From: Escherichia phage mEp506
Direction: 5' to 3' (one strand)
Sequence record: PV340542
DNA length: 40,128 nucleotides
Made by a program: the position numbers and the translations under genes. Under the pieces are notes generated by a model. It searched no databases and had not been told where the DNA came from. It saw only the letters and a list, made by a program, of their open reading frames with translations. Positions 31,473 through 32,182 of the stretch are shown here, piece after piece (position 1 is the first letter of the stretch; every line of letters begins with the position of its first letter).

Positions 31473-32182
31473 ATGCGTCAGAAAACCATAGATGCGATTA
31501 TGGCGCATGCTGCAGCTGAATATCCTCTTGAGTGTTGCGGCGTGGTGGCGCAGAAAAGCCGCGTTGAACGTTATTTCCCGTGCCGGAATCTTGCCGCGGC
31601 GCCGGAGGACAATTTTGTCCTTTGCCCCGAAGACTACGCAGCTGCTGAGGACTGGGGAACGGTGATCGCCATCGTTCACAGTCACCCTGACGCCACTACG
31701 CAGCCGAGCGAACTGGATAAAGCGCAATGCGACGCAACGCTTTTACCCTGGCATATTGTGAGCTGGCCGGAGGGGATTTACGCACCATCCAGCCGCGCGG
31801 AGAACTGCCGCTGCTGGAGCGTCCGTTTGTGCTTGGACACTTCGACTGCTGGGGGCTGGTAATGAGCTATTTCCGGCAAACGCATGGTATCGAGCTCCAC
31901 GATTACCGGGTGGATTATCCCTGGTGGGAAAACGACTATCCGGACAATTTTTATCAGGATTGCTGGTATGAATGCGGATTCAGGGAGTTTGACGGCCCGC
32001 CTCAGGAAGGGGACCTCGTCATCATGCAGGTGCAGGCCGATAAGTGGAATCATGCCGGGATTTTACTGGAGGGTAACATGCTGCTGCACCACCTGTACGG
32101 ACATCTGAGCCAGCGCGTGCCGTATGGTGGCTACTGGCAGGAAAGGACGATGAAGATTCTTAGACATCAGAATTTTATTTAA
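31473..32182 (+). pseudogene. K: tail assembly protein K (JAB/MPN plus NlpC/P60), frameshifted
   Basis: ORFs 31473..31862 and 31727..32182 together give a lambda K-like protein (AEYPLECCGVV...HSHPD; LGHFDCWGLV...); the frame changes at a G4 run (31772-31775). Confidence 0.8.

Follow-up and report, generated by a model that had tools for sequence, protein, structure and literature searches.

In phage HK97, gene K (gp19, NP_037713.1; labelled 'minor tail protein, similar to lambda K' and, by PGAP, 'C40 family peptidase') lies after L and before I and J, and encodes a protein in which a JAB domain is joined to an NlpC/P60 domain. Lambda K has the same two peptidase domains and the same neighbours L, I and J; its sequence is distant. 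Proteins of this architecture, referred to as TAPK, have been predicted to process the ubiquitin-like protein I, making I the predicted partner or substrate of K (Iyer, Burroughs and Aravind, 2006, PMC1779556). The gene that we describe here lies in a stretch of 40,128 nucleotides from Escherichia phage mEp506 (record PV340542; hereafter the window) and, judged by its sequence, is a homologue of lambda K and an ordinary HK97-type tail-tip assembly gene K, the two domains of which are written in different reading frames. It stands in a tail operon with the order H-M-L-K-(moron)-I-J, the gene order expected of a TAPK, and the parts of the locus to which we refer below are the following.

30713..31471 (+): gene L, minor tail protein, intact and directly upstream of K
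31473..31775 (+): codons 1-101 of gene K, with the Prok-JAB (JAMM metallopeptidase-like) domain (from the translation and PF14464)
31772..31775 (+): G4 run, G5 in all relatives examined, a shortfall of one base
31776..31862 (+): 28 out-of-frame codons (IYAPSSRAENCRCWSVRLCLDTSTAGGW) and a stop, the tail of the first ORF
31775..32182 (+): codons 102-236 of gene K and the stop, in the -1 frame, with the linker and the NlpC/P60 (C40 peptidase) domain
32504..33112 (+): gene I, tail assembly protein (ubiquitin-like TAPI), intact

As written, the first ORF (31473..31862) encodes 129 aa and reads MRQKT...WHIVSWPEG up to codon 101 (GGG, 31773-31775). It contains the Prok-JAB domain (PF14464, E = 6.6e-22 in Pfam, residues 3-99), which occupies residues 3-102 of the repaired protein, and its translation holds a complete JAMM motif, with the Glu in PLECCG and HSH-x7-S-xx-D in VHSHPDATTQPSELD. 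The Glu of PLECCG together with HSHPDATTQPSELD conforms to the published definition of this motif, E...HxH-x7-S-xx-D (PMC300881). The second piece lies in the -1 frame, in an ORF from 31727 to 32182 that contains ...GGDLRTIQPRGELPLLERPFVLGHFDCWG... and ends with the stop at 32180-32182. It carries the NLPC_P60 domain (PF00877, E = 1.4e-22 in Pfam; residues 117-231 of the repaired protein), and the Cys in FDCWG and the His in NHAG and LLHH, all in the -1 frame, are its putative catalytic residues, assigned by inspection. By comparison with HK97 gp19, to which the -1 frame is 100% identical throughout 31776..31862, the 28 codons that end the first ORF do not represent a real coding extension. 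Two reverse-strand ORFs over K (31461..31727 and 31778..32053) overlap a conserved gene and were taken as spurious.

The break follows residue 101, at the end of the JAB domain and before the linker, in agreement with the preliminary description of this DNA, which had placed a split of K at a G run between its two domains and had the downstream sequence continue in the next frame. At this position (31772-31775) there are exactly four G, in the context ...gtg agc tgg ccg gag ggg att tac... (31759-31782), and the frame changes because the run is one base short, with four G in place of five. The count of four had been given correctly in that description, but the string in which it was quoted, gagGGGGat, holds one G too many and should read gaGGGGat. 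Addition of a single G yields a 711-nt ORF (710 nt in the window version) for a 236-aa protein with both domains, so that the single continuous ORF of about 236-247 aa that is characteristic of TAPK is absent from the sequence as written and present after the addition. The further proposal that five G would restore one continuous K is borne out by HK97 K, with which the repaired gene is identical over 711 nt and 236 aa. Over the 710 bases of the window version the only difference from the HK97 gene is one gap (99.9%); residues 1-101 of gp19 are 100% identical to the first piece and residues 101-236 to the piece in the -1 frame. On this comparison the split is no chance pattern, as it amounts to a difference of one base from an otherwise identical known gene. 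Alignment to lambda K, which had been suggested as a check, likewise runs without interruption across the break (30% identity to the repaired protein over 236 aa, E = 2e-23), but the annotated lambda protein of 199 aa could serve this purpose only in part, as it lacks the first 48 or so residues.

The G4 allele appears to be confined to this record. GGGGG stands at the K site in the alignments of HK97, HK544, HK542, ECP1 and E. coli YZ_2_2, and among the matches listed every full-length phage and E. coli match has 711 nt against the 710 of the window. Among viral, genome and metagenome contigs the G4 string (35-36 nt around the site) had no exact match, and the G5 version of the same string is present in 65 viral contigs. 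Among 5,426 complete E. coli genomes, the best candidate prophages were mosaics with about 97% identity that covered at most 70% of the query. Nor did the truncated K (129 aa), the shifted J (1155 aa) or the truncated holin (79 aa) have an exact counterpart among recorded proteins.

A tail-operon gene that is read in frames 0 and -1 recalls the tail assembly chaperone pair (lambda G/GT; HK97 gp13/gp14), and full-length K could be imagined to arise from G4 at the G run, either through programmed -1 ribosomal frameshifting or through slippage during transcription. The shift needed is indeed -1, the tRNA-Gly on GGG (31773-31775) could re-pair at 31772-31774, and a Shine-Dalgarno-like GGAGG overlaps the site. 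A programmed -1 frameshift needs a slippery heptamer, however, and the junction CCG GAG GGG ATT offers no X XXY YYZ: only the A-site codon re-pairs, and the P-site codon GAG would need to pair at GGA. A four-base G run is also too short for efficient polymerase slippage. Moreover, the fold of the downstream 105 nt (31766-31870), at -34.2 kcal/mol, is no better than that of shuffled sequence (mean -37.4, z = +0.88), 166 of the 200 shuffles doing as well. The frameshift of the chaperone pair is conserved in relatives and has its slippery heptamer, whereas the shift in K has neither and is unique to the record; the relatives examined have an in-frame G5 between identical flanks, and conservation of the two-frame arrangement is thus lacking. 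Since heptamer, downstream structure and conservation are all missing, we rejected programmed frameshifting, to which we give next to no credence.

The second ORF raises a related question, namely whether K might naturally be two genes, with JAB and NlpC/P60 made as separate cooperating proteins. Such an arrangement would be in keeping with two protein profiles that each cover half of K, as phrog_2635 (135 aa) matches only the N-terminal half and phrog_2552 (142 aa) only the C-terminal half, and prophages with NlpC/P60-only versions of K have been described (PMC1779556). In the window, however, the downstream frame offers a single start ahead of the catalytic Cys, the ATG at 31727; this ATG is internal to the first ORF and is not preceded by a Shine-Dalgarno sequence. 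The first ORF itself closes with 28 junk codons. Apart from the missing G, the DNA matches the unsplit gene exactly and is hence without adaptation to splitting, and the split is found in none of the relatives, whether among the phage and E. coli matches listed or in the contig scans. With no start and ribosome-binding site for the second half, and with DNA that is that of the unsplit gene, a natural two-gene K was rejected and appears extremely improbable.

The shortfall in K is one of several in the window. The window was aligned with three complete genomes, those of HK97, HK542 and ECP1, and we considered isolated small indels within high-identity blocks, almost all of which proved to be one-base deletions in the window that fall within homopolymers. 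At least nine homopolymer runs are shorter in the window than in the closest relatives and none is longer. The nine sites, four of them coding and five non-coding, are listed here.

19078..19083 (+): G6 near cos, non-coding; G8 in HK542 and ECP1, G9 in HK97
19149..19154 (+): T6 upstream of the small terminase gene; T7 in HK97, HK542 and ECP1
24314..24317 (+): G4 just after the major head gene, non-coding; G5 in HK97, HK542 and ECP1
25830..25835 (+): T6 in a terminator tail; T7 in HK542 and ECP1, with T6-T8 natural among relatives
26334..26339 (+): T6 in a terminator tail; T7 in HK542 and ECP1, T6 in 1 of 6 relatives
29117..29123 (+): A7 in H, the first H frameshift; A8 in each of the 13 viral contigs that span it
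30012..30015 (+): C4 in H, the second H frameshift; five bases (C5 or another string) in all 22 relatives
31772..31775 (+): G4 in K; G5 in relatives
37033..37037 (+): G5 near the end of J; G6 in relatives (all 3 viral contigs that span it)

Perfect identity to some relative extends over 228-1195 nt around each of these indels. Relative to HK542, the shortened fraction increases with the length of the run, from 0/215 for runs of four through 3/77 for five, 1/21 for six and 3/8 for seven to 2/3 for eight. By contrast, the control comparisons of HK97, HK542 and ECP1 with one another gave nine isolated small indels that go in both directions, only one of which lies in a run of five or more. The two T-run differences in the non-coding terminator tails fall within the natural variation among relatives. 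Shortened runs are found in the late half of the window (9/76) and not in the early half (0/43), but the early half has few long runs and the imbalance is probably not significant (0/42 against 4/66 for runs of five and six, rough p about 0.15).

In the coding sites the consequences resemble those in K. The tape-measure gene H, which is one ORF of 1093 aa in HK542 and ECP1, is cut into three ORFs (27096..29213, 29201..30022 and 30058..30375) because of two one-base shortfalls, A8 to A7 and C5 to C4. J loses its C-terminus because G6 has become G5 at 37033: it stops early at 37080 rather than at about 37163, with a junk tail (shifted product 1155 aa), and its last 41 or so codons, with 100% identity to J of HK542, are found in a different frame that extends to about 37160. 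A protein-level check with all genes of HK542 and HK97 found frame changes only in H, K, J and the holin gene, and no in-frame stops in the approximately 60 genes that have a homologue at 85% identity or more. The essential tail genes H, K and J are thus broken at homopolymers only.

We believe that the split of K reflects homopolymer under-calling in the assembly, and we put the probability of this reading, whose technical cause is deduced from the pattern of the sequence, at roughly 70%. Under-counting of homopolymers is typical of long-read and flow-based platforms. The base-caller or assembler would have under-counted run lengths, so that the five G of K were written as four; the same error would account for the missing bases in at least eight further runs of the window, two of them in H and one in J, and the real phage DNA would be G5 and encode a normal K. 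The indel in K lies in a homopolymer, is one of many that go in the same direction, and belongs to a set whose frequency rises with run length. Shortening that is one-directional, length-dependent and blind to coding, and that comes without other damage, is the signature of under-calling. In long-read assemblies the residual errors are mostly false deletions in homopolymers, by which genes become fragmented (PMC12007338), and the window shares with such long-read and flow-based artefacts the single direction of the homopolymer deletions, the greater toll on longer runs, the occurrence in coding and non-coding DNA alike and the split genes. The 14-nt deletion in the holin gene, to which we turn below, does not match this type of error.

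As the main alternative, G4 may be real, in which case replication slippage would have deleted one G and inactivated K in an already defective, decaying prophage, with H and J hit in the same way. The context of the gene makes this worth considering. Both ends of the window (1-60 and 40029-40128) coincide exactly with HK022-type attachment sites: the end follows the left arm of HK022 attP as far as CATCCTTTAGGTGAA before it diverges (AAAG), and the start picks up from the core ATAAGTTGTATAT. The window is thus an integrated prophage, arranged from attL to attR and with cos in the vicinity of 19125-19174, and an origin as a prophage bounded by HK022-type attL and attR sites would be consistent with real mutation. 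In addition, the holin gene (15657-15963) has a unique 14-nt deletion at 15877 that lies outside homopolymers, where relatives have TAACGAGCGTGTTC, and its product is truncated to 79 aa as compared with 106-107 aa in relatives. None of 146 related phage records has the deletion, and scans of genome and viral contigs turned up no sister prophage with the same lesion. The deletion is hard to blame on base-calling and unlikely to be a sequencing error; it is probably real and would then make the prophage lysis-defective. The prophage may thus be truly defective and free to gain real frameshifts. Four frameshifts in three essential tail genes would fit a prophage that is no longer under selection, replication slippage also favours long runs, and degenerate versions of K are known from integrated prophages (PMC1779556).

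The details of the small indels speak against real mutation. All nine are deletions in runs of five or more, with no insertion and none outside runs, and the natural differences between the reference phages show another pattern. Nonsense codons are absent from every other gene checked, K is free of substitutions relative to HK97 over 710 nt, and five of the nine events are non-coding, which points to a process that is blind to coding. Moreover, the G4 allele is absent from the viral, genome and metagenome collections searched. We therefore regard real slippage in a decaying prophage as possible but rather unlikely. That G4 might be real and K activity nevertheless kept, either through low-level -1 slippage of the tRNA-Gly or through separate JAB and internally initiated NlpC/P60 fragments, seems to us very improbable; if activity did survive through separate fragments, the two peptidase domains would need no covalent link.

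With homopolymer under-calling as our preferred explanation, the feature in K is an ordinary one, a known gene with a homopolymer one base short, most probably because the record is in error and, failing that, because K has become a trivial pseudogene. As the shift in K is one of at least nine shortened runs, it indicates a sequence-quality problem or a dead prophage and nothing that is specific to K, and neither the artefact nor a real frameshift would reveal new biology of protein K. There are nonetheless practical consequences. Taken as written, the record would lead to the annotation of broken H, K and J genes and to the scoring of the element as a defective prophage, and the split is of interest chiefly as a quality flag; the fragments of a split K can also seed spurious half-gene protein families. 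If G4 were real, the K pseudogene would yield a JAB fragment (129 aa, ending in a junk tail) that lacks NlpC/P60, tails would not be built, and the element would be an ordinary decaying prophage.

The records of reference phages have annotation and frameshift problems as well, as seen in ECP1 (NC_049926), where an extra C splits the replication gene O into two annotated CDS (79-907) and gene L, between M and K, has no annotation (24147-24904). In lambda (NC_001416, 14133-14875), K is annotated as a protein of 199 aa from an internal Met because the record lacks one G (GAGGC-TATT), and the first 45 or so codons of the JAB domain (MTQTESAILAHARRCAPAESCGFVV...) follow L immediately, in a different frame. 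The extra G (GAGGCGTATT) is present in DE3, HK629, DN1 and others, in which the K ORF is continuous over 247 aa; the annotation of DE3 still copies the 199-aa model. Some members of phrog_2635 and phrog_2552 may also be frameshifted K genes rather than true two-gene arrangements.

Finally, the tail operon of the window differs from that of HK97 in the segments around gene I. Between K and I (32230-32488) there is a moron for a 74-aa membrane protein (YebO family / HK022 gp20, phrog_5031) with its own terminator, an arrangement that is shared with HK542 and HK544 and not with HK97. The intergenic segment between I and J (33113-33453) is unrelated to HK97, HK542 and ECP1, and contains a reverse-strand ORF of 71 aa (33232..33447) with a weak match to phrog_6806, at the position of the 'reverse moron' gp23 of HK97.
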